A DNA stretch of 64,000 nt from a phage: NCBI GenBank assembly GCA_025830695.1, contig GCA_025830695.1_4111.1; one strand, 5' to 3'. The notes beneath the pieces were generated by a model, which saw nothing but the letters and a program-made list of their open reading frames with translations, made no database searches and was not told where the DNA came from. The translations under genes and the position numbers were made by a program. Positions within the stretch are counted from its first letter, which is position 1; each line of letters begins with the position of its first letter. Of the stretch, positions 2,919 to 63,002 are shown in pieces.

Positions 2919-5082
<2,164 letters not shown>

Positions 5083-26007: not shown

Positions 26008-26436
26008 ATGAATATCGAACAAACTATCCGTGAACATTCTTTCTTCGCTCCAGAAACTGGTCGTGTTATTGAGAGCGTCAAAATCGAAGAACTAATGGTC
26101 AATGTTAAATACAAAGAACCAAATGATGAGATTAGCAGTACTTTTTGTGCTCTACGTGCACCATTCCGTAATGAAAAAGCTAAGAAACCAGCATATGTTC
26201 TTGCCATTGCACTGGGTTGTGTTGTAAAACTTGCAGTTGATGAAAATCTTCTGAATATTAAAGTTGCACCAAGCAATGACGATGAAAACATTGATTTGAA
26301 CTTTGATGGTTCTCTTGATGAAGATGTATTTTTCCAACAGTCACTTGTTTACGACTTCCGTACAGTGACACATTCTCACATCAAGTTCATTAATGAAATG
26401 GTTGAGATTGTTGCTGAATACGAAGAATCTCTCTAA
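26008..26436 (+). CDS. EExFFQxS-motif family protein (member 1)
   Basis: C-terminal DEDVFFQQSLVYD. Confidence 0.6.
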   Translation: MNIEQTIREHSFFAPETGRVIESVKIEELMVNVKYKEPNDEISSTFCALRAPFRNEKAKKPAYVLAIALGCVVKLAVDENLLNIKVAPSNDDENIDLNFDGSLDEDVFFQQSLVYDFRTVTHSHIKFINEMVEIVAEYEESL

Positions 26437-26489: not shown

Positions 26490-27041
26490 ATGATAGACCA
26501 AATTAAAATCCTTACAAAGCAAATCACTGATTTTCTTTCTGATAAAGATGGATTTAATACAGAAGTAAAAATGCACGGTGTTAGTGTTGATGTAATTGCA
26601 CCAAATGGTAATGTAACAAGTTACGACATGTATGAATTACTTCTTTATACTCTAGCAGTACGTAAACTAGGTAGTGATATTGAACTCAATATCAATACTG
26701 ATGAAAGTGGGAATAAAATTTTTGCAATCAACACCAGTGCTAAATTCGATATCAGTACTGAAATTAAAAAAATAAATGAAAGTTTTATTGGCTTTAAGCA
26801 TGAATCAATTCAAAGTGTTTTTATTGGAAAGCAAACTTCTAATAGTGAATGCCCATATTGTGTAATGACTTTATATAAAGATGGAAACTGGATGCGTCAA
26901 GATTTAGTATTTGCTGAACTTCTGTATGCATTTACACATGAACTTAAAATCGAATTGGACGATAGTGTTTATTGCTTTAAGAAAATTCGAAATATAACTA
27001 AAGATATACAAACCCAACTTAAAGAATTAAATGATAAATAA
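26490..27041 (+). CDS. hypothetical protein
   Basis: 183-aa ORF, RBS AAGGAAA. Confidence 0.55.
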   Translation: MIDQIKILTKQITDFLSDKDGFNTEVKMHGVSVDVIAPNGNVTSYDMYELLLYTLAVRKLGSDIELNINTDESGNKIFAINTSAKFDISTEIKKINESFIGFKHESIQSVFIGKQTSNSECPYCVMTLYKDGNWMRQDLVFAELLYAFTHELKIELDDSVYCFKKIRNITKDIQTQLKELNDK

Positions 27042-27147
27042 ATATACCAGAAATGGTTAACATATCATGTTACTTTCCTCCCTTACATAATAATGATGCG
27101 TTATTATATTTTCATTTTGTTCTTATTCCCCTTTTGGTACAAAATCA

Positions 27148-27170
27148 TTTTAGTACTGCCCCGATCTTCG
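27148..27170 (+). terminator. intrinsic terminator
   Basis: GCCCCGA-TCT-TCGGGGC followed by ATTTTT. Confidence 0.65.
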
Positions 27171-27201
27171 GGGCATTTTTCTTATCTAAAATTGAGGATA
27201 T

Positions 27202-27597
27202 ATGAAGAACAATATTGGAACTTCAATAATTAAACCACTTTCTTATTACCTTGAAAAATTTAGAAGCACAAATGGTAATAAATTTAATAATATATTTCAG
27301 TTCTCTCATAAAGAATATATTACAATTGATCATTTTTCAAAGAAACTAATGTATGTAAATGATAATAGTCATATTATTAAATTATCATTCGATATTGAGT
27401 TAGATAAATTAACATTTACGGAATACATTAATCAAAAAACTTCTTTTTTATGTCAATACAATAGGAAAGTATATAGTAATATTTCTATGTATCTAAATGA
27501 TGAATATCACTTTCAACAATCTACAATAGAAGAAGTATTGTTCAGTACTGAAGAATTAAAAGAACTATATTACTGGTATAATTATTTCACATCTTGA
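27202..27597 (+). CDS. EExFFQxS-motif family protein (member 2)
   Basis: C-terminal NDEYHFQQSTIEE. Confidence 0.6.
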   Translation: MKNNIGTSIIKPLSYYLEKFRSTNGNKFNNIFQFSHKEYITIDHFSKKLMYVNDNSHIIKLSFDIELDKLTFTEYINQKTSFLCQYNRKVYSNISMYLNDEYHFQQSTIEEVLFSTEELKELYYWYNYFTS

Positions 27598-27652
27598 CAT
27601 TATTGTGGGTTTATCCTACAATACATGATGATGCTGCATTGAGGATAAATTT

Positions 27653-28063
27653 ATGAGTTTAGATTTACACAATGAACTAAAATATTTTTTAGATTTGGAC
27701 ATATCAGAATTGAACCACCACGTCAATCATATGACTAGTACTGTATGGTGGTCTAATGATCAAGACGACCCAATTATCCAACTAAGTGATGAATCGTCAA
27801 TTATGCGATTTTATAAGATTAATTATAAAAAGAACATCAAGATCACATATGTACCATACAAAAACATACTACTAGTCGAAACACTTAATCCAAGTTCTTT
27901 ATTAAAAATCACAGATTTAGATACATTACAAACAAGTGAATCTTTATTCCAACGTTCATTAGTTGATGATCTTGGTGGTATTACTTTTGAAGATATATTA
28001 CAATTGAAGAATATGTATAGTGAATTGTTGGAGATTAAAAACACTTTAGTAATGGGGAATTGA
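27653..28063 (+). CDS. EExFFQxS-motif family protein (member 3)
   Basis: C-terminal SESLFQRSLVDDLGGITFED. Confidence 0.6.
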   Translation: MSLDLHNELKYFLDLDISELNHHVNHMTSTVWWSNDQDDPIIQLSDESSIMRFYKINYKKNIKITYVPYKNILLVETLNPSSLLKITDLDTLQTSESLFQRSLVDDLGGITFEDILQLKNMYSELLEIKNTLVMGN

Positions 28064-28064
28064 T

Positions 28065-28469
28065 ATGGTAAGTTTACTAGATATTGATAATACCAGTTTA
28101 GTGCTGGTGAAAAAAGGTTTAATTCCCAATTCTACAAAAATTGATTATGCTGTTATTGAAACAAATATTGGAAATATCTGGTACGACTCTGAAAGGGATA
28201 TTGTGTTTAGCTGTGTAGACAGTGATCGATCTGAATGTTGTAGAGTCGGTCATGACGGACAATTTGTTTTTGAATTTCGTTATTGGAAGGACGCAAAATT
28301 TCACCAAGAACTGGTTGCTTTGTCAAATGAACTATATACAGAAGAATCGTTCTTCATGGCTAGTACTATTAATGATTTTGGTTCAGTTACATTTGAGTAC
28401 TATAAAAAGATATACGCACTATCCAGAGAAGTTATGAAAATTATCAGAACTGCTGAAGGTAAAGAATAA
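28065..28469 (+). CDS. EExFFQxS-motif family protein (member 4)
   Basis: C-terminal TEESFFMASTINDFGSVTFE. Confidence 0.6.
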   Translation: MVSLLDIDNTSLVLVKKGLIPNSTKIDYAVIETNIGNIWYDSERDIVFSCVDSDRSECCRVGHDGQFVFEFRYWKDAKFHQELVALSNELYTEESFFMASTINDFGSVTFEYYKKIYALSREVMKIIRTAEGKE

Positions 28470-28470
28470 C

Positions 28471-28848
28471 ATGACTACTATATATGATATTTTGGGTGTT
28501 CTGAGTAGAAATATAGATGATGATTTTGTTATTGTTCAAGATACTAGAAATACATTTCAACTACCAATAGGTTCACCAGATAGGTTAATTTTTAATAGAT
28601 ACTCAAATGAACTAACTTACATCCATGATGGGATTGCAATTGTATCAGTTTCTATAAACGACTATACAATACGATATGTATATGACTTCAACGATTATTG
28701 TACAAGAATCCACAGTATTGATATTTCCGAAGAGGAACTATTCCAATTGTCATTGATTGAGAAAAATGTAATAGGAATTACAGAAATTGGTATTATTAAA
28801 AAAGCATTAAACTATACAAATATAAGAATTAATGGTGGGTGCAGATGA
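28471..28848 (+). CDS. EExFFQxS-motif family protein (member 5)
   Basis: C-terminal SEEELFQLSLIE. Confidence 0.6.
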   Translation: MTTIYDILGVLSRNIDDDFVIVQDTRNTFQLPIGSPDRLIFNRYSNELTYIHDGIAIVSVSINDYTIRYVYDFNDYCTRIHSIDISEEELFQLSLIEKNVIGITEIGIIKKALNYTNIRINGGCR

Positions 28849-29300
28849 ATGTTGACGAAATAAAAAATCATTTTGAAATTGCAATGTCATGTGAATTTGA
28901 CACACAACGTGTTCATGACCCGAAAGAACATATACGCATTTGTTGTGAATTGTCAGATGATTGTAATATTTTTATTGGAAAAACCTATGACATGATCGAT
29001 CTTTCATGTATAGATCCATTGGAAAGAAAAACAAAATATTTATATCTGTACAACACAACATCAGATACGATTGCAATACAACTAATATCAACCACAACAT
29101 CCCAAAGTTATTATAACATAACTGAGGTTAGTAGTTTAACGTTAACCGAAGAAGGATTCTTTCAACAATCGCTTATTCGTGAAATTGGTGTTAGTTATGA
29201 TGAGTTAAATGTATTAGTAGATTGTTTCGAAAAATTGAGTACTTTTGTATTATCCCTTTTTAATATACAGTCGCAAAATCCAATGGTGGTGAAATGCTAA
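28839..29300 (+). CDS. EExFFQxS-motif family protein (member 6)
   Basis: C-terminal TEEGFFQQSLIREIGVSYDE. Confidence 0.6.
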   Translation: MQMNVDEIKNHFEIAMSCEFDTQRVHDPKEHIRICCELSDDCNIFIGKTYDMIDLSCIDPLERKTKYLYLYNTTSDTIAIQLISTTTSQSYYNITEVSSLTLTEEGFFQQSLIREIGVSYDELNVLVDCFEKLSTFVLSLFNIQSQNPMVVKC

Positions 29301-29734
29301 ATCCAAGTAAATTTCTCCACTTACTTTCGATAACATCAATACCGGATCTTACCAGTGAAACTAATGAATATCGTGAAGCTGGGGTGGTGTCTATGGAACT
29401 CGATACATTTGACCACAAATGCTATGTGACATATGACCCACCGCGTTATGGTAAAGAACATTCTTCTTTTATTTTTGTATTCGTATACACTGTATATGAT
29501 AATACAACACTTGATGATGTTTGTATTGACACTTACGAAATTTGTGATAATATCATAACTGATGACAACAATAACTCATTTGATATGTCACTATATAACA
29601 CAGAAGAATCGTTGTTTCAACTTAGTACTGTTATTGATGCACCATCATTAGAAGATATAAAACAATTTCAAGAACATCTTGACGCAGTTCGTGAGATGTT
29701 CTATAATCATTATCCAGAAGTAGAGTTCAATTAA
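29294..29734 (+). CDS. EExFFQxS-motif family protein (member 7)
   Basis: C-terminal TEESLFQLSTVID. Confidence 0.6.
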   Translation: MLNPSKFLHLLSITSIPDLTSETNEYREAGVVSMELDTFDHKCYVTYDPPRYGKEHSSFIFVFVYTVYDNTTLDDVCIDTYEICDNIITDDNNNSFDMSLYNTEESLFQLSTVIDAPSLEDIKQFQEHLDAVREMFYNHYPEVEFN

Positions 29735-29748
29735 CTAAAGGTAATAAG

Positions 29749-30009
29749 ATGACTAAAGTAGTTCGTAAACGCCACATGATGAACATGGATGAATTTCGCA
29801 CATTTGACAAATATCGTACTATGTTTCGTATGCTTTCACAGGGCCGTCCAATCGTCATTGTAACAGAGAATTACATGTCACCTGAGATTATGTTTGGTAA
29901 TTATGAAAAGGTCTTCATGTTGTACGTGAAGCGTGGATTACTTACAATCAAGACATTAGCTGAAGCAACTGATGAAGATATGGATGGTGATAATACCTTT
30001 ACCATGTGA
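29749..30009 (+). CDS. hypothetical protein
   Basis: 86-aa ORF, RBS AAAGG. Confidence 0.5.
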   Translation: MTKVVRKRHMMNMDEFRTFDKYRTMFRMLSQGRPIVIVTENYMSPEIMFGNYEKVFMLYVKRGLLTIKTLAEATDEDMDGDNTFTM

Positions 30010-31740: not shown

Positions 31741-31765
31741 ATCCACGCATTGCGTGGATTTTTCA
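31741..31765 (+). terminator. intrinsic terminator
   Basis: ATCCACGCA/TGCGTGGAT palindromic hairpin followed by TTTTTC. Confidence 0.6.
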
Positions 31766-31776
31766 TAGGTGCATAT

Positions 31777-32292
31777 ATGCCAATTCCTTATGTTAAAATT
31801 ATTAATAATATTCTCGATTCATGGGAAGATGTTATTACTGGTAAAAAGAAACCATCACCAGTACATGCTTTATCTGGGAAACTTCAATTCAGAATGTCAA
31901 ACCAAACTGAAACATTTAATAATCATGATATTTGCATTACATTAAAAACACCTGTTAGTATTGTAATTAAAAAAAATAAAGATGATGAATTGACATTATC
32001 TATTGGTCGTGATAAAATCATTTTAAGTAATTTGTCTGAAGAAGAATTCTTTCAAAGAAGTACTATTATCGATATGAAAGATTTCACATATGAATCATTG
32101 GTTGAACTCAATACACGTTTTAACGATATTCAGGAACGATTGCGACCAATTCTTCGTATCGAAGAAGAAGCCTGGATTGAAAGTATTAGGAAGATGCAAG
32201 AAATGTTGAAAGAAAATATTAACAATCTGGGTAAAGCTACAATGGAATTTGGTAAAACTTTTAAACTGAACTTTTCAAAGGATCGTAAATGA
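31777..32292 (+). CDS. EExFFQxS-motif family protein (member 8)
   Basis: SEEEFFQRSTIID; start trimmed to ATG 31777 downstream of terminator. Confidence 0.55.
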   Translation: MPIPYVKIINNILDSWEDVITGKKKPSPVHALSGKLQFRMSNQTETFNNHDICITLKTPVSIVIKKNKDDELTLSIGRDKIILSNLSEEEFFQRSTIIDMKDFTYESLVELNTRFNDIQERLRPILRIEEEAWIESIRKMQEMLKENINNLGKATMEFGKTFKLNFSKDRK

Positions 32293-32744
32293 AAATTGAT
32301 AATTTGATTCATGTTTTAGGATCTTTACATAAAATATTATCACATCTACATGAGATAAAGAAACTGGGATTTAACATCTCAAATTCAATTGAAACTACAT
32401 TTAAATATCAATCAATTACTGGTGATGGTTATTACATAATCGAATATACTTATGAAACCGATCCAGACTTCTATCCTCTTACGTTGAGAATTTATCCAAC
32501 AAATCCGAGAGGAATTCACGACATATCATCAATTTCACTTGATCCAGATGGTGAAACGAGTATTGAATACAATAATGATTCAAAACCAGAATTTTACATT
32601 GATGATATTAAAATGATGTTCAACGATGAATATGTTTTCCAACAAAGTACTGTGCATGATGTTGGAAGTACTAATGGACAATTTTGGAATACATGTTATT
32701 ATCATATGATTGAAATTTGTAAATTACTAAAAGGTGATGAATAA
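32289..32744 (+). CDS. EExFFQxS-motif family protein (member 9)
   Basis: NDEYVFQQSTVHD. Confidence 0.6.
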   Translation: MKIDNLIHVLGSLHKILSHLHEIKKLGFNISNSIETTFKYQSITGDGYYIIEYTYETDPDFYPLTLRIYPTNPRGIHDISSISLDPDGETSIEYNNDSKPEFYIDDIKMMFNDEYVFQQSTVHDVGSTNGQFWNTCYYHMIEICKLLKGDE

Positions 32745-33127
32745 TGAAATACTGCATTGAAGTACATTACACTACAGGGGACACTGAAACTGAAGATTCA
32801 GTTACCAATACATTGGATGTTCAATGGGAATCAAAGGATGAGGCAGTTGTAGCATTACAGTCTTTGAAAGAGCATTGGGTATTCTTTAAGAAACTCGATG
32901 ATGCATATAGTAACGAACGTGCTACAATAATCGATGAAGCCAAACATAAAGAATGGTTTGATCCAATGTCATGTGAATTCTCTTTCTTTGTAAAAATTGG
33001 AGATGAAAAAATCCCAGTACGTACACCGTGGAACGGCTACTTTGAAACTCTTCATAATGCACGAGTTGTCGCTGTTGATAATCCTGAACAAATCGATTTC
33101 GATTCATTGGACTGGAAAAAACTATGA
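32744..33127 (+). CDS. hypothetical protein
   Basis: 127-aa ORF, overlapping start/stop. Confidence 0.5.
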   Translation: MKYCIEVHYTTGDTETEDSVTNTLDVQWESKDEAVVALQSLKEHWVFFKKLDDAYSNERATIIDEAKHKEWFDPMSCEFSFFVKIGDEKIPVRTPWNGYFETLHNARVVAVDNPEQIDFDSLDWKKL

Positions 33128-33567
33128 CAGTACTGCACCAATTGAAGAAGGTTAAGCATCCAGTTGTATATGAGGACTGGAAACGTCAGAAGCTGATGGG
33201 TGATTTTTATTTCCCAAAATCTAAAGTACTAGCAACGTCAAAAGCTATATACTTGAAATATAAGGATGAAGATTGTTTGTGTATTCAAATGGGATTCCAT
33301 CCTAAAGTTGGTTTGTTTACAACAAATCAAACATTTTATAAATTTAGAATTCAAAAAGATACATTTAGTATTCATATCGAAAAACATGATGTACAAGATA
33401 CAATTTATCGTGTGGAAAGTGAGCCTTTGAATCTTGTTGAGATCCCGTACAATAATTTAGAAGAAATGTACTTTCAGCAGTTGACAATACAAGAAGACTT
33501 TGGTATGATAGGACTTCAAGAGTTAGAGATGATTAAACAAATTCGTGATATCTACTTTAAGGAGTAA
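33124..33567 (+). CDS. EExFFQxS-motif family protein (member 10, divergent)
   Basis: LEEMYFQQLTIQEDFG. Confidence 0.55.
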   Translation: MTVLHQLKKVKHPVVYEDWKRQKLMGDFYFPKSKVLATSKAIYLKYKDEDCLCIQMGFHPKVGLFTTNQTFYKFRIQKDTFSIHIEKHDVQDTIYRVESEPLNLVEIPYNNLEEMYFQQLTIQEDFGMIGLQELEMIKQIRDIYFKE

Positions 33568-38387: not shown

Positions 38388-38606
38388 ATGAAATTTATTG
38401 ATTTTGATATTTCTAAGGCCAAAGAATTATTTGTAAGAAATGAAGTTTATGATATCATGTTACATAACGGCACTGTACAAGAAGATGTTGTGTTGTTTTC
38501 GTTTGATGGTGAAAATCTCGAAACTATATATAAATTCAGCAACTTAGATGGTGACTTTTGGGAAACCAGTGCTGTTAAAATGTATAGAATTAAAAAGGAG
38601 CATTAA
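38388..38606 (+). CDS. hypothetical protein
   Basis: Trimmed to ATG after AGGAGGA. Confidence 0.5.
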   Translation: MKFIDFDISKAKELFVRNEVYDIMLHNGTVQEDVVLFSFDGENLETIYKFSNLDGDFWETSAVKMYRIKKEH

Positions 38607-38607
38607 C

Positions 38608-39096
38608 ATGCCAATTCGTGGTGTACCAGAACCATTAATGGAAGTTATTAAGCATGTTCGCATTGGAGATCGAGAAGTTAATCTTCGCCGTAATAACATT
38701 TATTACTTTAAAACTTCAGAAATGAGTTCTGTACAGATTGTCATTGGTACATCTATTAAGATTACTCGTGTACTTGATGGTAGTACTGACTTCGTTGAAT
38801 ATAATGTACTTACTAATAAAGTAACGCATATATATAAATGGAGTGGGTATAAAACTATTAAGTATGAATTTGACTTAGCTAGAACTGAAGAAGAACGATT
38901 TATGCTGAGTACTATCAATCCAGCAAACTATCCCGATCTTGATGCATTTTTGCTAATTTTAAAATTGTATAATGAAGCAAATCAGAAAGCTAAAGAGTAT
39001 GATAGAATCATGTATGAACGCCGAAAAGAACGTGCACAAAAAAGTTATGATCTGTATGATAGCCCATACGTGAAATATAGTAAGGGGTCGAAATGA
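38608..39096 (+). CDS. EExFFQxS-motif family protein (member 12)
   Basis: TEEERFMLSTINP; start at ATG after AAGGAG. Confidence 0.55.
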   Translation: MPIRGVPEPLMEVIKHVRIGDREVNLRRNNIYYFKTSEMSSVQIVIGTSIKITRVLDGSTDFVEYNVLTNKVTHIYKWSGYKTIKYEFDLARTEEERFMLSTINPANYPDLDAFLLILKLYNEANQKAKEYDRIMYERRKERAQKSYDLYDSPYVKYSKGSK

Positions 39097-39497: not shown

Positions 39498-39672
39498 GAC
39501 ATTTGATGAGTGGTTTAATCTACACTATAATATAAATGCAGCAGATATATACTATTTTAAGCTTGAATTGTATATATCATTGCGTAACCCAATTGAGTAC
39601 TATAACAACATTATCAATTGTGATGATTTTGGTACATATTTTAGTATAGCCGTTATGGATATTAAGAGATGA
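39487..39672 (+). CDS. hypothetical protein
   Basis: 61-aa ORF. Confidence 0.4.
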   Translation: MQPKTFDEWFNLHYNINAADIYYFKLELYISLRNPIEYYNNIINCDDFGTYFSIAVMDIKR

Positions 39673-39848
39673 CACATGAAGAATGGATGGCAATGATGAA
39701 AAAACGTTATGACCAGTTTGGAAATGGATTTATTGATGGTCATTTCGATATTTTACGAGACAAATATAAGTTCGAATCATATGTACTAGATGAGAATGGA
39801 AATCGTTGGTTCATCTATGAGCTTGCGGTTAGAGACAAAAAAATATAA
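39669..39848 (+). CDS. MTHEEW-family small protein (member 1)
   Basis: Not in ORF track; ATGA overlap; MTHEEWMAMMKKRYDQFGNGFIDGHFDILRD... Confidence 0.5.
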   Translation: MTHEEWMAMMKKRYDQFGNGFIDGHFDILRDKYKFESYVLDENGNRWFIYELAVRDKKI

Positions 39849-40108: not shown

Positions 40109-40444
<336 letters not shown>

Positions 40445-40445
40445 A

Positions 40446-40628
40446 ATGACACACGAAGAATGGATGTCCAAACAGCATAAAGAACATGACTGCTTTGGGA
40501 ATGGCATTCGTCAGGTACATTATGATATATTAAGAGATGAAAATCTTTTCAGGTCATATGTTTTGGATACCAGAAAACCCTGGTTTATATGCGAACTGGC
40601 ATTTAGAAAGTCAAATAATCAAAACTAA
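40446..40628 (+). CDS. MTHEEW-family small protein (member 3)
   Basis: MTHEEWMSKQHKEHDCFGNGIRQVHYDILRD... Confidence 0.55.
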   Translation: MTHEEWMSKQHKEHDCFGNGIRQVHYDILRDENLFRSYVLDTRKPWFICELAFRKSNNQN

Positions 40629-40644
40629 ACAAGGAATACAAAAA

Positions 40645-40863
40645 ATGGAAACAACTTTATTTGAAGTTATTCAATCATTAAAACCTGAAGATGAGGTTCA
40701 AGTACTACTACATGGTTATCGTGTAAAAGGTACTGTGGTTTTAGTCAATGATACAACATTGGTTATTACAGAAACAAACCCATATGATAGTAATCAACTT
40801 GCCAATATCCATATCGATATCACTGGAATTATTGGTGTCGGTGTATCTAAAACACTTGCATAA
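40645..40863 (+). CDS. hypothetical protein
   Basis: Trimmed to ATG after AAGGAA. Confidence 0.5.
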   Translation: METTLFEVIQSLKPEDEVQVLLHGYRVKGTVVLVNDTTLVITETNPYDSNQLANIHIDITGIIGVGVSKTLA

Positions 40864-40916
40864 ATCATTAATTCATTATATAATGATTATCACTGGTTCT
40901 AGATGAGGATAATATT

Positions 40917-41189
40917 ATGCATTTTGAAAAATTCAACGTAAATCGTAACACACGCATTGAAGTTCTTTATGAAACTCAAGACACCATTAGTATTCGTACA
41001 AGTAGTGGGGATGTATATCATGACTGTACGATTGGCTGGGAACAGGGAAGGACGCGTAGTGCAGTATTTGATAATTATCGCTTTTATCAAGGAGACACTA
41101 CGATTTGGCCTGAATACGTAGAAGATATTGCGTTTGAAGATGAACATAAAGATGAATTTATCAAATTTAATCCTCAAACTGAATCATAA
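40917..41189 (+). CDS. hypothetical protein
   Basis: 90-aa ORF, RBS GAGGA. Confidence 0.5.
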   Translation: MHFEKFNVNRNTRIEVLYETQDTISIRTSSGDVYHDCTIGWEQGRTRSAVFDNYRFYQGDTTIWPEYVEDIAFEDEHKDEFIKFNPQTES

Positions 41190-41193
41190 ATAA

Positions 41194-41323
<130 letters not shown>

Positions 41324-41326
41324 AAT

Positions 41327-41427
<101 letters not shown>

Positions 41428-41429
41428 CA

Positions 41430-41590
<161 letters not shown>

Positions 41591-41594
<4 letters not shown>

Positions 41595-41751
41595 CACATG
41601 AAGAATGGATGAATGACATTAATTTTAGATATTCGGGTATCGGTAAATGGCTAAAGTATCATTGGGAATTCATTTCAGAGCCACATCTGTATGATAAACT
41701 TATCAACGATCCAGCATATGAAATGTACTTAATTGAACTACTGGTACGATT

Positions 41752-41755
<4 letters not shown>
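41591..41755 (+). CDS. MTHEEW-family small protein (member 5)
   Basis: 54 aa, about 80 percent DNA identity to member 4; ATGA overlap. Confidence 0.5.
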
Positions 41756-41917
<162 letters not shown>

Positions 41918-41925
41918 AAAAAAAG

Positions 41926-42335
<410 letters not shown>

Positions 42336-42339
<4 letters not shown>

Positions 42340-42371
42340 CTAAATAATTCAGTACTGAGGATATTAATATG
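42336..42371 (+). promoter_or_regulatory. degenerate copy of the promoter cassette
   Basis: TTGACTAAATAATTCAGTACTGA then a poor -10. Confidence 0.3.
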
Positions 42372-42396
42372 TTTAAAGATGAACGTCCAGATTTGT

Positions 42397-42444
<48 letters not shown>

Positions 42445-42449
42445 ATCAG

Positions 42450-42782
42450 ACGTATATGGTGTAAGTTACGTCGATGCAATCCAGAACAAGATCTCTGGTA
42501 CTCTAGGAAGTGGTGAATGTTAACCTAGACGGGTTTGATAATTGGACGATAGGCAATTATTACTTGACTAGCAGGTTTAAACTAGAGGTGACTATCCTTC
42601 ACCAAACTGGAAAACCGGATGGACTTTTATTTAAAAGGGTAAGGCGTGGAAATATGTTTACAGAAGTTGCTTTTAGTAGCCTGTACGCCCCACGTCAAGG
42701 TAGCCGAAAGGCAAGTTAAGACGGGTGGTTATAAAGCTGAATTAACAGCGGCGTTTAAAAGCGTCACCATCCATTTTTTTTT
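42450..42782 (+). ncRNA. candidate structured non-coding RNA
   Basis: About 330 nt without a credible ORF, visibly GC-richer than flanks, promoter upstream and T9 run at 3' end. Confidence 0.3.
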
Positions 42783-42798
42783 AATTAAAGTTGGTGAT

Positions 42799-43608
<810 letters not shown>

Positions 43609-43632
43609 ACGAAATTACAATAGGAAATTAAA

Positions 43633-43818
43633 ATGCAACTTTTAATTCTTTCAATATTGTATATTATTATAATGGTTCCGATATCAATACGTTTAATTAC
43701 ACTTGAACGATTTTTATCGAAACATGGAAATAGATCTATGATCTTAGTACCAATCGGGCTTATATTGTTTGGTATTTTTGCATTTATAATGGGAATTAAC
43801 GCTACATTCATTTCATAG
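43633..43818 (+). CDS. small membrane protein
   Basis: 61 aa, two hydrophobic helices. Confidence 0.45.
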   Translation: MQLLILSILYIIIMVPISIRLITLERFLSKHGNRSMILVPIGLILFGIFAFIMGINATFIS

Positions 43819-43827
43819 GAAACAAAT

Positions 43828-44085
<258 letters not shown>

Positions 44086-44093
44086 GAATTTAA

Positions 44094-44495
44094 ATGAAAA
44101 AGAATGACTTGATCAAAATGCTTCAAGAAATTGACGGCAATCCAGAGATTGTTATTTGGAATGGATACGTCGATGATTATATGAACATCGAAAAAGGCTT
44201 GACTAAAATCACTCTAGTCAAAGAAACCGAACAGTTTCTTCAGGGTGCATTAGAGCACGAATGGTGTGAACGTAACAATACATTCGACATTCCAGAAGAC
44301 CAACGAACCAAGATTGCAGAACGTGCTAAAGAACTGCATAAGAAACGTGAATACGATTTCCAGAACCCATATGTCACTGAAGACGAATTCAATCGCTGGT
44401 ACGGTAAAAAGAAATTGATAAAGTATGTCCTTTCACCTAAACTACGTGGTAAGACTTCACTTGGTGTATTCAACGCCGCAGACTTAAACTACTAA
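44094..44495 (+). CDS. hypothetical protein
   Basis: 133-aa ORF. Confidence 0.5.
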   Translation: MKKNDLIKMLQEIDGNPEIVIWNGYVDDYMNIEKGLTKITLVKETEQFLQGALEHEWCERNNTFDIPEDQRTKIAERAKELHKKREYDFQNPYVTEDEFNRWYGKKKLIKYVLSPKLRGKTSLGVFNAADLNY

Positions 44496-44507
44496 GAGAG
44501 TATTTAA

Positions 44508-44981
<474 letters not shown>

Positions 44982-45016
44982 CAGGGGAGGTTGTGATTCC
45001 CGATTCAGTAGCTTAT

Positions 45017-45139
<123 letters not shown>

Positions 45140-45140
45140 T

Positions 45141-45275
<135 letters not shown>

Positions 45276-45277
45276 TA

Positions 45278-45334
<57 letters not shown>

Positions 45335-45419
45335 AGTAAGAGTAAAAATGAAAGTAAGTAAAAAAACTACCAAGCAGCTTGAAGAACTTTGTAGTGCTGC
45401 ACCTATGCCGACTCTTGGC

Positions 45420-45520
<101 letters not shown>

Positions 45521-45532
45521 TATCTTACTTCT

Positions 45533-45622
<90 letters not shown>

Positions 45623-45628
45623 TACACT

Positions 45629-46054
45629 ATGAAATACAACATTGTTAAAATGGTGAACTATATATTAAAAAACAACGCATGGTCACTGCATGATGTACAA
45701 TTAGAAGATATTGGTGAAGTTAGAGTATTTTGCTATGATCCAGATTTGAATCAAACCACAGATTTGAGTAAATGTTTTAATATTTTTCTTGGTTATGAAT
45801 TCAATAATCATTTTTATTCATTTGATGTGTATTTTGAAAAAGTTATATTCAGAAGTTATGAATGTGATAATGAAGATTATGATTATGATGATGAATCAAT
45901 TGAATTGAATGTTAACGATATTGATACTGAAGAAAAATTCTTCCAGTACTGCCTCCTTAACGACACATTAGGATTAACATTTGAGGACATTAAAGCTATA
46001 CTTAAAGTTCAAAAGTTGATTCCAGAAGAGGTTCTAAATCCATTAAATGACTAG
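45629..46054 (+). CDS. EExFFQxS-motif family protein (member 16)
   Basis: TEEKFFQYCLLNDTLGLTFED. Confidence 0.55.
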   Translation: MKYNIVKMVNYILKNNAWSLHDVQLEDIGEVRVFCYDPDLNQTTDLSKCFNIFLGYEFNNHFYSFDVYFEKVIFRSYECDNEDYDYDDESIELNVNDIDTEEKFFQYCLLNDTLGLTFEDIKAILKVQKLIPEEVLNPLND

Positions 46055-46412
46055 TCTAATAGTACGTATAATGCAAGATGTTTGTAATAACCTTTATACA
46101 GGCAATTTTGACGATCCGAACATAAAAATATTATGTTATGATGGTTTTACAATGGTACATCCATCCTATTCAAATAATATCTACGTAGCATATACAGGTG
46201 AAAATCTATTATATCAATTTGATATATATAGTACAATGACAAAGATAATTTTGGATGCCTCTAAACCAGCAATCTTTATTGCTTCTCATGATTACCATTA
46301 CACTGAAGAATCACTATTTCAGTACTCAATGATTAATGACATTGGTGGGTTGACATTGGATGAGGTTAATGCTATACTAGCTGTCTCACGTTTGGTTAAA
46401 ACCCACAATTAG
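46047..46412 (+). CDS. EExFFQxS-motif family protein (member 17)
   Basis: TEESLFQYSMINDIGGLTLDE. Confidence 0.6.
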   Translation: MTSLIVRIMQDVCNNLYTGNFDDPNIKILCYDGFTMVHPSYSNNIYVAYTGENLLYQFDIYSTMTKIILDASKPAIFIASHDYHYTEESLFQYSMINDIGGLTLDEVNAILAVSRLVKTHN

Positions 46413-47122: not shown

Positions 47123-47551
47123 GTGAATGCAATGAGTTATTTGTTTACTTTAATTGATAAGTATGTTGACATTGTATACCGTCAAGTTTGTAGTGATACG
47201 TTTGAAACAAAAAACCCAATTAGAGATGGCATTTTTGATGTTGTCGTTGGATCATTTTTGAATGGATACACCGAGACATTATACAACAGTAATAATATTT
47301 TTATTTCAGTTCAATCCAGACATACATCAGACTATGCTGTTAGCATTGATATTTGGGAAAATAATATAGAAATAGATATAACGGAACATACTAACATTCA
47401 TGTTGATGATACATTTAATCAATTAACTGAAGAAATGTACTTGCAGTTGAATTTTGTACATGATCTTACAAATATCAGTTATGATACATTAAGGAAAATA
47501 TGTTTTCTTAGTGGGGCGATCCGTAGTAATATGAGTAAGGATGGGAAGTGA
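47123..47551 (+). CDS. EExFFQxS-motif family protein (member 18, divergent)
   Basis: TEEMYLQLNFVHD. Confidence 0.5.
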   Translation: MNAMSYLFTLIDKYVDIVYRQVCSDTFETKNPIRDGIFDVVVGSFLNGYTETLYNSNNIFISVQSRHTSDYAVSIDIWENNIEIDITEHTNIHVDDTFNQLTEEMYLQLNFVHDLTNISYDTLRKICFLSGAIRSNMSKDGK

Positions 47552-47552
47552 A

Positions 47553-47969
47553 ATGTTAAAAATTCCACCTAAGTCGTTAACACATCTTATTGAATGTGGT
47601 GTAATATTTTCCGAAGGTGATACCTCATCATACACATTGGTCGATGAACCTTATAATTTTTCATACCAATCTTATAAAAATAATTCTAAAATTTCTTGTA
47701 GAGATGCTGAAAACATATTAATAGATGTTTCGTTACATAATGTTCCGAAATTTTACATTGATATCTTTGGTGATTCTTTGACAATTCGAACATATGATTA
47801 TTTTATTAATAACGACCTCTTGAGTCTTCCAATTGAACATGATACTATAGATTCAGAGATGTTCTTTCAACTATCAACAGTTTACGATTTACAGGGTTTA
47901 ACTGTTGAGCAGTTGAATGGAATATTTGAGATTTCACGAAACATACGAAGCAGGAATAAAAATGTCTAA
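47553..47969 (+). CDS. EExFFQxS-motif family protein (member 19)
   Basis: DSEMFFQLSTVYDLQGLTVEQ. Confidence 0.55.
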   Translation: MLKIPPKSLTHLIECGVIFSEGDTSSYTLVDEPYNFSYQSYKNNSKISCRDAENILIDVSLHNVPKFYIDIFGDSLTIRTYDYFINNDLLSLPIEHDTIDSEMFFQLSTVYDLQGLTVEQLNGIFEISRNIRSRNKNV

Positions 47970-48378
47970 TATTTTAAATGAAAAAACAGTTGATGTTGTT
48001 ATTGGTGTTCTTAACACCGCAACTTCATTTCAGAAGAAACACAGTACTGTATACTTCGGTGACGATTGTTGGCTGAACTATACATCTGATAATTCGTTTA
48101 TAATTCGTGTTGAGAAGGGTGATATTGGATTAACGATACATGCTTCCCACACTAAAACTGATAAGAAAATCACTGTTATTGCAAACAAGCCAAGTGTCTC
48201 AGATTTCTGGGATAGAATTGATGATTGCGACCATTTCATGTCAACATTCTATAAAACAGAAGAAGAACATTTCATGGATAGTACGGTCAAAGAATTAGCT
48301 ATTCCATTTAAACTTATGAAAGCAGTAAGAGATTTTATTTTAAAATACAAAAAAATAGGAGTTACTAATGCAATTTAA
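47962..48378 (+). CDS. EExFFQxS-motif family protein (member 20)
   Basis: TEEEHFMDSTVKE; start trimmed to ATG after AGGAA. Confidence 0.5.
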   Translation: MSNILNEKTVDVVIGVLNTATSFQKKHSTVYFGDDCWLNYTSDNSFIIRVEKGDIGLTIHASHTKTDKKITVIANKPSVSDFWDRIDDCDHFMSTFYKTEEEHFMDSTVKELAIPFKLMKAVRDFILKYKKIGVTNAI

Positions 48379-50947: not shown

Positions 50948-52102
50948 TTATGCGTTGTAACCAACTATTACGACTGAGCAGTCAAGCGGTTCTACTACTT
51001 TAAGAATTACATTATCATCTTCATCCACTTGTATTTCACTATGAACTACATGATTGTCTGAAGAATATAATTGAACTTGTGGTAGTGCTTTACCATGTTC
51101 AGTTACTGGAACTGAGATAGAGTACATAGAGTCTTCACCGAGAACCCACTCACTTAAAGTATATTCTTTATGGAAAGGAGTAGTATGCAGTGTTTTTCCG
51201 ATTATACTCAAAGAAACAGGTAAATTGTCAGTTTGATACACAGTAATATTACCTTCTGCGTCTACAGAAAGATCTACACCAACTTGATATAAGTCACCAC
51301 TGTATGCTTGAAGTGCTAAGTACTGTCCACGATCATGAACATCAAATGGAACAACCGCAGAAAATACACCTTCCGAAACAGGTTCAAATTGGGATAGAAG
51401 AACTGATGTAACAAAATCAATATCCTCACCACTTTCAAGAACATCAAATTCCACCACTTTAGTGTTATAATATGGAGAAGTGAGTGTAGCAGTACCTTTT
51501 CCTGATTGTGTGATAACATCAACTGGAATTGTAAATGCATCATTAACAAATTGGGTAGTAAAGTATTCTGTTCCGTCTGGTAATACGATTGTTATTACCA
51601 TACCGTTAGTATCAATTTCTGAACCAGTATTGAATAATTTACCACTAATTGAGTCATTACCAACAAATACTGGTGAAATGAGAATATTATCTATATCACG
51701 ATCTATAATACCACATTCAGGTGTATACATATGATACAAGGTTTGTGAACTACCTAAAATTGTTCTATGTAGCATGAATTTATATACAAATCCAGTATCA
51801 GTTTCTTGTGGCTCTTCAGAATATCCACGAACAAAGAAACAATTTTTATTAATTTCACTTAATAGTTGGTCATTAGTTTTATTGTAATTTAATAGATAAC
51901 CTTTATTATCTTTAGTTGTTATTTGTACTTTACGATATATTATATTAGTTCTTGGATCAACTAAATCATATAATCTATGGCTTCTTTGGCGATAGATTCT
52001 AATATTTTTTAGTCTAGTTCCATCATTGAGGATTGCACCATCAACAACATAACCACATTCACCAAACTTATAGCGTCCAGCCGCAGCAATTGACCTTGAC
52101 AT
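50948..52102 (-). CDS. hypothetical protein; only sizeable minus-strand gene in the window
   Basis: 384-aa ORF on minus strand; strong RBS GGAGGG; own promoter; no motif recognised. Confidence 0.6.
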   Translation of the reverse strand: MSRSIAAAGRYKFGECGYVVDGAILNDGTRLKNIRIYRQRSHRLYDLVDPRTNIIYRKVQITTKDNKGYLLNYNKTNDQLLSEINKNCFFVRGYSEEPQETDTGFVYKFMLHRTILGSSQTLYHMYTPECGIIDRDIDNILISPVFVGNDSISGKLFNTGSEIDTNGMVITIVLPDGTEYFTTQFVNDAFTIPVDVITQSGKGTATLTSPYYNTKVVEFDVLESGEDIDFVTSVLLSQFEPVSEGVFSAVVPFDVHDRGQYLALQAYSGDLYQVGVDLSVDAEGNITVYQTDNLPVSLSIIGKTLHTTPFHKEYTLSEWVLGEDSMYSISVPVTEHGKALPQVQLYSSDNHVVHSEIQVDEDDNVILKVVEPLDCSVVIVGYNA

Positions 52103-62283: not shown

Positions 62284-62484
62284 ATGTTTACTTTATATCT
62301 TGCAGTAGTACTAACTAATGGTGAAATCACTCGCACCGTTGGTGAAGGTGTATATAAAACACCTGAGCAGTGTTACTCTGCAACTCATTGGCCTCGTGAT
62401 GCTGGTGATGAATCTCGCACTGAATACAAATGTATGAAGGTTAAAGGTGATTTTGTAAATCTAAAGGTTATTGAGACTAAGTAA
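62284..62484 (+). CDS. hypothetical protein
   Basis: 66-aa ORF, RBS AAGGA. Confidence 0.5.
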   Translation: MFTLYLAVVLTNGEITRTVGEGVYKTPEQCYSATHWPRDAGDESRTEYKCMKVKGDFVNLKVIETK

Positions 62485-63002
62485 TGGATATTAATGAGTT
62501 GTTGAAATTAGTGTTTAATCGTGAACGCCGCGATACAAGACCAATTGAATATCAAGATGTGATACGCATTGAAACTGATTTCTGTTATGGTAAAACAACT
62601 CATGACCTTTTGAATCTCTCTGGAAAACGCTATGCTGATGTTTGTTTTTCAGAGAGAAGTGATGGTTCAGAAATAACGAGTACTGATATTGTTTGTTACG
62701 CACGCAGTGCTGATAAATCTTATGAAATAGAACTTATATATTCCCCTAGTTCTAAAACAAATCATCACCGCCATATTTTATATGATGTTTACACACCACC
62801 TGGTATTGCTGAATATTTTGTTATTGATTATAGTACTGAAGAAAATGTGTTTCAACAAAGTTTGATTCATAACTTTGAGGTGAATGATCCATTAGTACCA
62901 AAGTTGTTCAAACTACTTGACACCATAGATGTTGATTTTGAATTTGTTATGTGCATTAGAACTTCTTTATTCAATGAATTCATGGAACTTTTTAATATAT
63001 GA
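62484..63002 (+). CDS. EExFFQxS-motif family protein (member 21)
   Basis: TEENVFQQSLIHN. Confidence 0.55.
   Translation: MDINELLKLVFNRERRDTRPIEYQDVIRIETDFCYGKTTHDLLNLSGKRYADVCFSERSDGSEITSTDIVCYARSADKSYEIELIYSPSSKTNHHRHILYDVYTPPGIAEYFVIDYSTEENVFQQSLIHNFEVNDPLVPKLFKLLDTIDVDFEFVMCIRTSLFNEFMELFNI

Follow-up and report, generated by a model that had tools for sequence, protein, structure and literature searches.

A six-gene array in an Asteriusvirus jumbo phage is one segment of a very large phage-specific protein family

The stretch of phage DNA considered here (contig GCA_025830695.1_4111.1 of NCBI GenBank assembly GCA_025830695.1; 64,000 nucleotides (nt), in the following the window) contains an array of six consecutive small genes at positions 27202-29734. 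We find that this array is an old part of a very large multigene family that is specific to phages and has about 60 copies per Asteriusvirus genome. The family is referred to as TEE-FQxS, and its motif [TS]EEx[FY]FQxS[TL][VI]xD is near-invariant. Overall, we regard it as very likely that the array is an old, fast-diverging and partly mosaic segment of this approximately 60-copy family, and that the family encodes a new small alpha/beta domain.

The window is part of an Asteriusvirus jumbo coliphage. Region 26000-33200 matches Escherichia phage SHEFM2K at 99.9% identity and the phages 121Q, PBECO4 and phAPEC6 at 98.6-99.7%; the Asteriusvirus relatives of the window are jumbo myoviruses with genomes of about 350 kb. 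The array corresponds to gp83-88 of 121Q and to gp127c-132c of phAPEC6, every one of which is annotated as hypothetical.

Members, motif and fold of the family

Membership was evaluated by a leave-one-out test, in which a hidden Markov model (HMM) built from the other 17 members in the window was searched against the 253 open reading frames (ORFs) of the window. The test recovers six family members, as had been proposed from the sequence, with E-values from 6e-4 to 8e-12, and the best non-member in the tests of the six array genes reaches 2e-3 to 0.06. A reversed-sequence control of the family HMM gave zero matches. The array consists of the following genes (lengths in amino acids, aa; SD, Shine-Dalgarno sequence; E, leave-one-out E-value).

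27202-27597, + strand: array gene 1 (a1), 131 aa, 121Q gp83, with SD; E 2e-8; motif NDEYHFQQSTI
27653-28063, + strand: array gene 2 (a2), 136 aa, 121Q gp84; E 6e-10; motif SESLFQRSLV
28065-28469, + strand: array gene 3 (a3), 134 aa, 121Q gp85; E 8e-12
28471-28848, + strand: array gene 4 (a4), 125 aa, 121Q gp86; E 6e-4, the weakest member; motif EEELFQLSLI
28845-29300, + strand: array gene 5 (a5), 151 aa from ATG, 121Q gp87; E 7e-9; hypervariable
29294-29734, + strand: array gene 6 (a6), 146 aa, 121Q gp88; E 9e-10; motif EESLFQLSTV

The genes adjoin or overlap slightly, in agreement with the earlier description: the measured spacings are, in order, 55, 1, 1, -4 and -7 nt, with a5 overlapping a4 by 4 nt and a6 overlapping a5 by 7 nt. 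The mechanical ORF start of a5 is a GTG at 28839, which is a possible alternative to the ATG. SD-like GAGG/GGTG motifs are found 5-10 nt 5' of every array start. The six are considered genuine genes because purifying selection acts on them. If the 18 family members of the window were placed at random among its approximately 118 genes, a run of at least six would occur with P ~5e-4.

All six proteins contain the pattern [ST]EE.[FL]F[QM].S[TL][IV], located approximately 90-105 residues from the N-terminus. The wider family pattern, a C-terminal [TS]EEx[FYL]F[QM]xS[TL][VI]xD at about residue 60-150 and then a helix starting with [TS][FY]E, is likewise present in all six. Conservation was evaluated over 228 family proteins: within the motif F is conserved in 99%, Q in 92% (otherwise M), the two E in 89% and 91%, S in 89% and D in 68% of the proteins, and outside the conserved motif residues the family is less than 20% identical. 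The only variable positions of the motif helix in these 228 proteins are spaced i, i+4, i+8, corresponding to a single exposed stripe. Synonymous codons are free to vary inside the motif, hence selection acts on the protein, and a role of the motif as a DNA-level repeat or recombination signal is ruled out by the same observation. Members have length, motif position and an alternating hydrophobic pattern in common. The proteins are small (about 105-230 aa) and usually acidic; five of the six array proteins have an isoelectric point of 4.1-4.9 (4.1 for a6).

The AlphaFold2 model of a3, calculated from a 36-sequence alignment, has a pLDDT (predicted local distance difference test) of 92.8 and a pTM (predicted template modelling score) of 0.84. 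It starts with a short helix at the N-terminus, continues with seven antiparallel strands (residues 13-87) and ends in two C-terminal helices. The first of these (residues 93-102, T92 at the N-cap) is the motif, the second comprises residues 110-130, with T109 at the N-cap. As modelled, a3 is therefore a single domain, a seven-stranded beta-meander with two C-terminal helices, rather than a variable domain followed by a conserved tail. The model of a4 is of low confidence (pLDDT 55.9) and has its secondary-structure elements in the same order as a3. A model of a RaK2 protein in BFVD (H6X3Z4, 30% identical) superposes on the a3 model with a TM (template modelling) score of 0.87. Helix N-capping typically places T or S at the N-cap and E at N1 to N3, while N' and N4 are hydrophobic. 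The conservation pattern of the motif fits a helix that is buried on three sides and has canonical N-capping.

Two likenesses of the motif were set aside. The beta-clamp-binding motif QL[SD]LF sits in a flexible segment and binds the clamp cleft, and protease sites of the TEV (tobacco etch virus) type read E-x-x-Y-x-Q|S. The motif resembles the former in Q-x-S-L-[IV] and has some likeness to the latter; it is, however, located within a packed helix that is confidently predicted.

Database comparisons identified no known relative. Scans of the array members against Pfam, NCBIfam and PADLOC gave nothing above noise; in NCBIfam and PADLOC there were no matches at E <= 0.1 except RimP, with 14 bits against a cut-off of 163. 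Pfam scans of members from a second genomic cluster (described below) and from metagenomes were empty. A profile search of PDB sequences returned nothing significant (best E 0.1), nor did the AlphaFold model of a3 have a significant match in the PDB. For Polo-box domains (PLK1/2/4, Cdc5, KKT3) we found neither a significant superposition nor agreement with Pfam POLO_box. The fold match to p32 / gC1qR / Mam33 is not significant (E 0.025, TM ~0.3), there is no Pfam MAM33 match, and the TEE-FQ-S motif is absent from these proteins as far as the alignments reach. In PHROGs, the array genes are assigned to one entry each (33313, 24941, 24510, 36084, 30841 and 30548); further entries are 23322, 38573, 21500, 17453, 13866, 12674 and 9317, and all are labelled 'unknown function'. 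The entries hold the orthologs. PHROGs does not merge the family; only weak cross-matches, which reflect the family, join its clusters.

We note that the array is a correct but small view of a much bigger family. An iterative HMM search of the 253 ORFs converged at 18 members and one borderline ORF, separated from the rest by a wide score gap, so that the window alone holds 18-19 members in place of the seven to nine assumed in the original prediction. Apart from the array, these are the following.

26008-26436, + strand: member upstream of the array (counted as member 1 in the original prediction), 142 aa; E 1.3e-5; RaK2 ORF184 is 48% identical
31750-33567, + strand: cluster 3' of the array with members 31750-32292, 32289-32744 and 33124-33567, and the non-member 32744-33127 among them
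38548-39096, + strand: dispersed member, 182 aa; E 2e-4
41986-42339, + strand: dispersed member, 117 aa; E 1.2e-8
42646-43176, + strand: borderline ORF, the top non-member, E 3e-4 to 0.1 across leave-one-out runs
45629-46412, + strand: adjoining pair of members, 45629-46054 and 46047-46412
47123-48378, + strand: adjoining triplet of members, 47123-47551, 47541-47969 and 47917-48378
62484-63002, + strand: dispersed member, 172 aa; E 2.3e-5

The complete relative OR844650.1 (351,992 bp) contains 46 ORFs at E < 1e-3 in a first pass with the window HMM, and 61 members after iteration to convergence. The motif is present in nearly all of them, and two or three are doubtful. All 61 members are encoded on one strand and together comprise 28.4 kb, or 8.1% of the genome. 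Of these, 19 form the cluster corresponding to the window, 38 lie in near-continuous arrays that make up a second cluster at approximately 267-295 kb, and four are scattered copies at approximately 199-253 kb, one of them doubtful. The second cluster varies in content: phages that are at least 96% identical cover 44-100% of it.

A word-indexed homolog search of the family yielded close relatives only. From 1.84 billion proteins, 137 cluster representatives were returned, all of them 60-233 aa long with a single matched stretch, nearly all with the motif, and none fused to another domain. Ten distant representative clusters (20 members listed) have metagenome-type sources only, and the few named proteins are hypothetical. 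The longest array observed is located on the 53 kb metagenomic contig L016 (Logan SRR26954460_1203), where 33 of 34 consecutive genes at 188-20256 are family members of 165-225 aa, with a longer C-terminal extension than the coliphage members.

The richness of Rak2-like phages in paralogs was remarked upon in general terms in 2013 (PMC3622015), and 22 paralogous ORFs have been reported for phage CBB (PMC5259590), both within the same phage supergroup as the window. The TEE-FQxS family probably makes up a large share of the paralogs counted there. The relevant passages of both papers give counts only; they describe neither a motif nor a fold, and do not cover the anatomy of the arrays, their evolutionary rates or synteny between genera. 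Likewise, in the jumbo-phage papers on CBB, RaK2, phAPEC6 and Sharanji, that of Iyer et al., and the databases, we found no account of the family, its motif, fold and size, or the synteny of the array across genera.

Evolution and expression of the array

Conservation of the array was followed through related phages. In three Asteriusvirus lineages that can be aligned at the DNA level the array is collinear with six genes, at identities of approximately 99%, 84% and 77%. In phage A4 all six array positions are occupied by family members that are 24-31% identical to those of the window, while the flanking genes reach 70%, 71% and 97%; a gene for a PTH2 peptidyl-tRNA hydrolase (Pfam E 2.5e-18; L004 4526-4936) lies between positions 3 and 4. 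The locus is also syntenic, from ORF178 to the methyltransferase, in Klebsiella phage RaK2 of the genus Alcyoneusvirus. There it consists of four members (ORF186, 187, 189 and 191), PTH2 (ORF188, L019 4901-5314, after two consecutive members) and a non-member annotated as a membrane protein. The RaK2 array members are 28-30% identical to those of the window (28% for a2 and ORF186, 30% for a3 and ORF187), compared with 44-76% for most flanking genes, and no counterpart of a1 was found in the syntenic RaK2 locus. A third, metagenomic lineage (L020) has three members followed directly by PTH2 (3072-3404).

The synteny in A4, RaK2 and the metagenomic lineage implies that the array is older than the split of these genera. 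The lineage of the window has no PTH2 gene at the array, which, judging from this comparison of gene orders, was probably lost in the 121Q lineage. The description of the array as uninterrupted thus holds in the window but not for A4 and RaK2, where PTH2 lies inside the array. The suggestion that the array is either old or fast-evolving can be extended to both: its synteny reaches RaK2 and the metagenomic lineage, and its proteins have diverged far more than those of the flanks.

The ratio of nonsynonymous to synonymous rates (omega, Nei-Gojobori) is 0.08-0.4 for the array genes where the synonymous divergence (dS) is unsaturated, and 0.02-0.12 for the flanks; for a4 versus UE-S1 there are too few substitutions for a meaningful omega. 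A difference in omega between the N-terminal and C-terminal parts, which had been proposed as a check, was not consistently found. Directly 3' of the array (29749-30009), an ORF of 86 aa without a Pfam match keeps 97-100% identity across Asteriusvirus lineages (omega 0.00-0.03), and in the same lineages the array genes are 24-66% identical.

The last two genes are mosaic. Protein a5 is 49-50% identical to its counterparts in UE-S1 and WPEC5. Sliding DNA identity between the window and UE-S1 is 100% at 28446-28745, about 52% at 28950-29200, and 97-99% in the gene after the array. The dS of genes 5 and 6 is approximately 1.2-1.6, compared with 0.08-0.3 for the adjoining gene. With such a high dS beside a low-dS neighbour, genes 5 and 6 look like old alleles that were recombined in, not like the product of a recent burst.

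Family-wide, adjacent genes are more alike than random pairs (mean Smith-Waterman score 86.7 versus 44.4, permutation p < 2e-4), which supports tandem duplication as the generator of the arrays. For example, five adjacent and near-identical members of the second cluster, at 281546-283870 of OR844650.1 (L013), share W[DG][ST]EEYYFQ[NQ][SN][TL][VIL][YF] and have scores far above the family background; they represent a recent tandem duplication within the family. Within the six-gene array the similarity is 46, against 42 to other members, and the best paralog is usually located elsewhere. A recent in-situ duplication of the six genes is thus unsupported, as their similarity has decayed to the family background. 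The proposed origin by repeated duplication and divergence therefore agrees with the adjacency signal of the family as a whole, but duplication in place cannot be demonstrated for this particular array.

The following candidate signals are located at the array.

27157-27175, + strand: terminator-like GC-rich hairpin and T-run directly 5' of a1, with an 8-bp stem of which 6 are GC pairs, then TTTTTCTT
27594-27622, + strand: sigma-70-type promoter-like site TTGACA-17-TACAAT between genes 1 and 2, overlapping the stop codon of a1
29679-29707, + strand: sigma-70-type promoter-like site TTGACG-17-TATAAT within the 3' end of a6, upstream of gene 29749-30009

The hairpin is kept in UE-S1, WPEC5 and A4 (four lineages including the window), and is annotated as a terminator in G17 and UE-S1. 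The promoter-like site at 27594-27622 is kept in UE-S1 and WPEC5, and is absent in A4, where the gap between the genes is 17 nt. At the place equivalent to 29679-29707, A4 has TTGACA-17-TACAAT despite a protein identity of 30% for a6. The two promoter-like sites bracket genes 2-6, within which there is no terminator-like site on the + strand and only a weak one on the - strand (29341-29356). Given the promoter-like site between genes 1 and 2 and the hairpin 5' of gene 1, the tight coupled unit would consist of genes 2-6. The proposal of one polycistronic unit is thus consistent with the junctions of 1 to -7 nt for genes 2-6, but gene 1 appears to be set apart by the conserved promoter-like site.

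Sites of this type are frequent in the window: TTGACA-N17-TAYAAT occurs 25 times with at most one mismatch (expected 3.5 +/- 1.9), for example at 1770, 17529, 19953, 34038, 36445, 53942, 55304 and 55625, with 24 of them on the + (coding) strand. The number and orientation of these sites argue that host sigma-70 RNA polymerase reads the region, and the whole 64 kb looks like an early-type region.

We also observed a 19-nt element, TTCCTCCCTTACATAATAA, at 27075-27093, which follows the stop codon of gene 26490-27041 and precedes the hairpin at 27157. This element occurs once in the window and is kept in UE-S1 and WPEC5, and nearly so in A4. It could be a promoter recognised by the phage sigma factor or an RNA element.

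Putative roles of the family

The most likely role of the TEE-FQxS proteins, which we put forward tentatively, is that of a diversified set of binders that are directed at host or competitor proteins and serve takeover or counter-defence. This putative role is suggested because the proteins are small, acidic, apparently early and not found in the virion, because their core is invariant and their sheet variable, and because they exchange alleles and diverge faster than their neighbours. In the favoured scenario, the family would grow by tandem duplication, followed by divergence and by allele swapping through recombination. Host RNA polymerase would start at the promoter at 27594 and transcribe genes 2-6 early in infection, and these genes would be translated as a coupled operon; transcription of gene 1 would depend on read-through of the hairpin at 27157. 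In the protein, the conserved helix hairpin would serve mainly as a folding core (helix N-caps and buried F, Q, S and T/L), and the variable sheet would be the working surface, such that each paralog binds a different host or rival target in the cytoplasm, much as multigene families do in large eukaryotic viruses. For the full explanation, description and function combined, we estimate a probability of about 0.5.

The same division into a conserved helix and a variable sheet may also be read in the opposite sense. The invariant helix would then be a shared site that docks one machine, ligand or metal, while the sheet picks clients, and the arrays would constitute a library in which adaptors or regulators are interchangeable, instead of a set of inhibitors that act independently. 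Such adaptors or effectors with a common partner seem rather unlikely, but less so than the remaining explanations. The conservation of five polar residues at 68-92%, and of F at 99%, in a family that is otherwise so divergent would be expected of a docking site, the constraint is on the protein and not on the DNA, and the motif is kept in all lineages examined, including RaK2 and metagenome contigs. However, the conserved positions also fit classic helix N-capping, and the helical periodicity of conservation with one variable stripe is that of a helix with a sheet on one side and another helix on the other. A candidate partner or ligand did not emerge, and none of the 137 representatives is a domain fusion. 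A role inside the virion is much less probable still. T4-type prohead proteases cut after L/I-x-E, and in many members a hydrophobic residue, S/T and E-E directly precede helix 1, in a predicted loop. An inner body is present in 121Q and related phages, as is a prohead protease of the T4-like type. The C-terminal part might be a capsid or scaffold targeting module that this protease cuts off at [LIM]-[ST]-E-E, with diverse N-terminal domains packaged and injected along with the DNA. Yet none of the members from the array or the second cluster is among the 62 proteins detected by mass spectrometry in the phAPEC6 virion: neither gp127c-134c (the array and its neighbours) nor gp407c-466c (the second cluster) were found, within the sensitivity of the method, so that a presence in the virion, as expected for internal-head or ejected proteins, was not observed. 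At the syntenic RaK2 locus, the homologs have the annotation hypothetical, in contrast to a neighbouring gene that is listed as a virion protein. Both observations argue against a structural or packaged role. In addition, the motif is an integral, high-confidence part of a folded domain rather than a linker, and the genes are located among host-type promoters and replication genes, outside the late structural region.

An improbable explanation is that the paralogs are near-neutral padding, which persists through duplication drift where a jumbo genome has room to spare, and that they have little individual function. The very large size of the family, the variable content of the second cluster and the presence of several other tandem families of tiny genes in Asteriusvirus genomes would be in keeping with such drift. 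Against it, omega is well below 1 for every array gene for which it is measurable, every Asteriusvirus lineage retains all six genes and RaK2 retains four, at a sequence turnover of 70%, and throughout the genes keep their SD sites and coupled starts and the motif stays intact. The scenario that had been named as a refutation of the original prediction, namely unrelated genes that were acquired separately and converged on a short motif, is the least credible of all. Pairwise BLAST similarity among members is indeed weak and mostly limited to 20-40 residues around the motif, and PHROGs gives every array gene its own family. But the leave-one-out HMM alignments cover residues ~25-135 in several members, a3 is predicted to fold as one domain with the sheet packed on the helices, members agree in length, position of the motif and hydrophobic pattern, and similarity tracks adjacency across the family. 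Together with the RaK2 synteny, homology and fold exclude this scenario.

Returning to the favoured role as diversified binders, we note that the TEE-FQxS family is a lineage-specific multigene family of a large virus, a kind that is already familiar, although the family itself is newly described. The MGF110/360/505 families of African swine fever virus (ASFV) and the poxvirus Bcl-2-like family similarly consist of dozens of divergent tandem paralogs on the same strand, and encode small non-structural proteins with strain-variable content and faster divergence than core genes. They have no sequence or fold relation to the TEE-FQxS family, whose host is a bacterium. The role of the ASFV and poxvirus families in immune evasion is established, whereas a corresponding role of the TEE-FQxS family is a hypothesis. 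By analogy, about 8% of a Rak2-like jumbo genome might be devoted to a single scaffold, as a recombining arsenal of early host-targeting or counter-defence binders, or as a library of adaptors that act via the invariant helix; in either case, and we consider this possible but doubtful, the family would be a counterpart of the ASFV and poxvirus immune-evasion families.

In phAPEC6, 83% of the genes are without assigned function, and the same is true of the majority of jumbo-phage genes. Roughly a tenth of the genes can now be grouped in one family that has a recognisable motif and a confidently predicted fold, which provides a single annotation handle for dozens of PHROG clusters currently labelled unknown and defines a target set of about 60 small, soluble and probably early proteins for experimenters. 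The synteny of the array and the motif, fold and size of the family are newly described. If the proteins are host-takeover or counter-defence factors, they would represent a large new reservoir of inhibitors of bacterial proteins and would help to explain the large genomes of these candidate phages for therapy. If either the arsenal or the adaptor reading is true, the six-gene array, in which genes 5 and 6 are hypervariable, would be a tractable entry point to the family. The mosaic genes 5 and 6 next to an almost invariant gene constitute a natural experiment in allele exchange.

Genomic setting and further tandem families

The G+C content of the window is 29-37%, and nearly all plausible genes in the mechanical ORF map are on the + strand. 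Recognisable genes encode topoisomerase II subunits, a clamp loader, a TelA-like protein, a sigma factor and a cytosine methyltransferase. The only large ORF on the - strand (50948-52102, 384 aa) has no Pfam match. Six tRNA genes (Gly-tcc, Ser-tga, Ser-gct, Met-cat, Asn-gtt and Thr-tgt) are found at 40131-45612, with family members between them. The window also contains a second tandem mini-family, consisting of ORFs of 54-59 aa that start with MTHEEWM (39669-39848, 41430-41594, 41591-41755 and 41752-41916), three of which are arranged back to back with 4-nt overlaps.

Outside the window, SHEFM2K (PQ390715.1, L007) harbors further large tandem families at 52.9-60.1 kb, 80.4-85.2 kb and 85.3-99.9 kb. 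These comprise more than 20 genes of ~70 aa (phrog_4148), about 20 genes of ~60 aa (phrog_11711 and unclustered), and 14 coding sequences annotated as 'regulator of chromosome condensation' (RCC1-like), one of which is a short fragment. The virion proteome of phAPEC6 includes seven 'DNA condensation proteins' that are similar in size and may be counterparts of the RCC1-like coding sequences.

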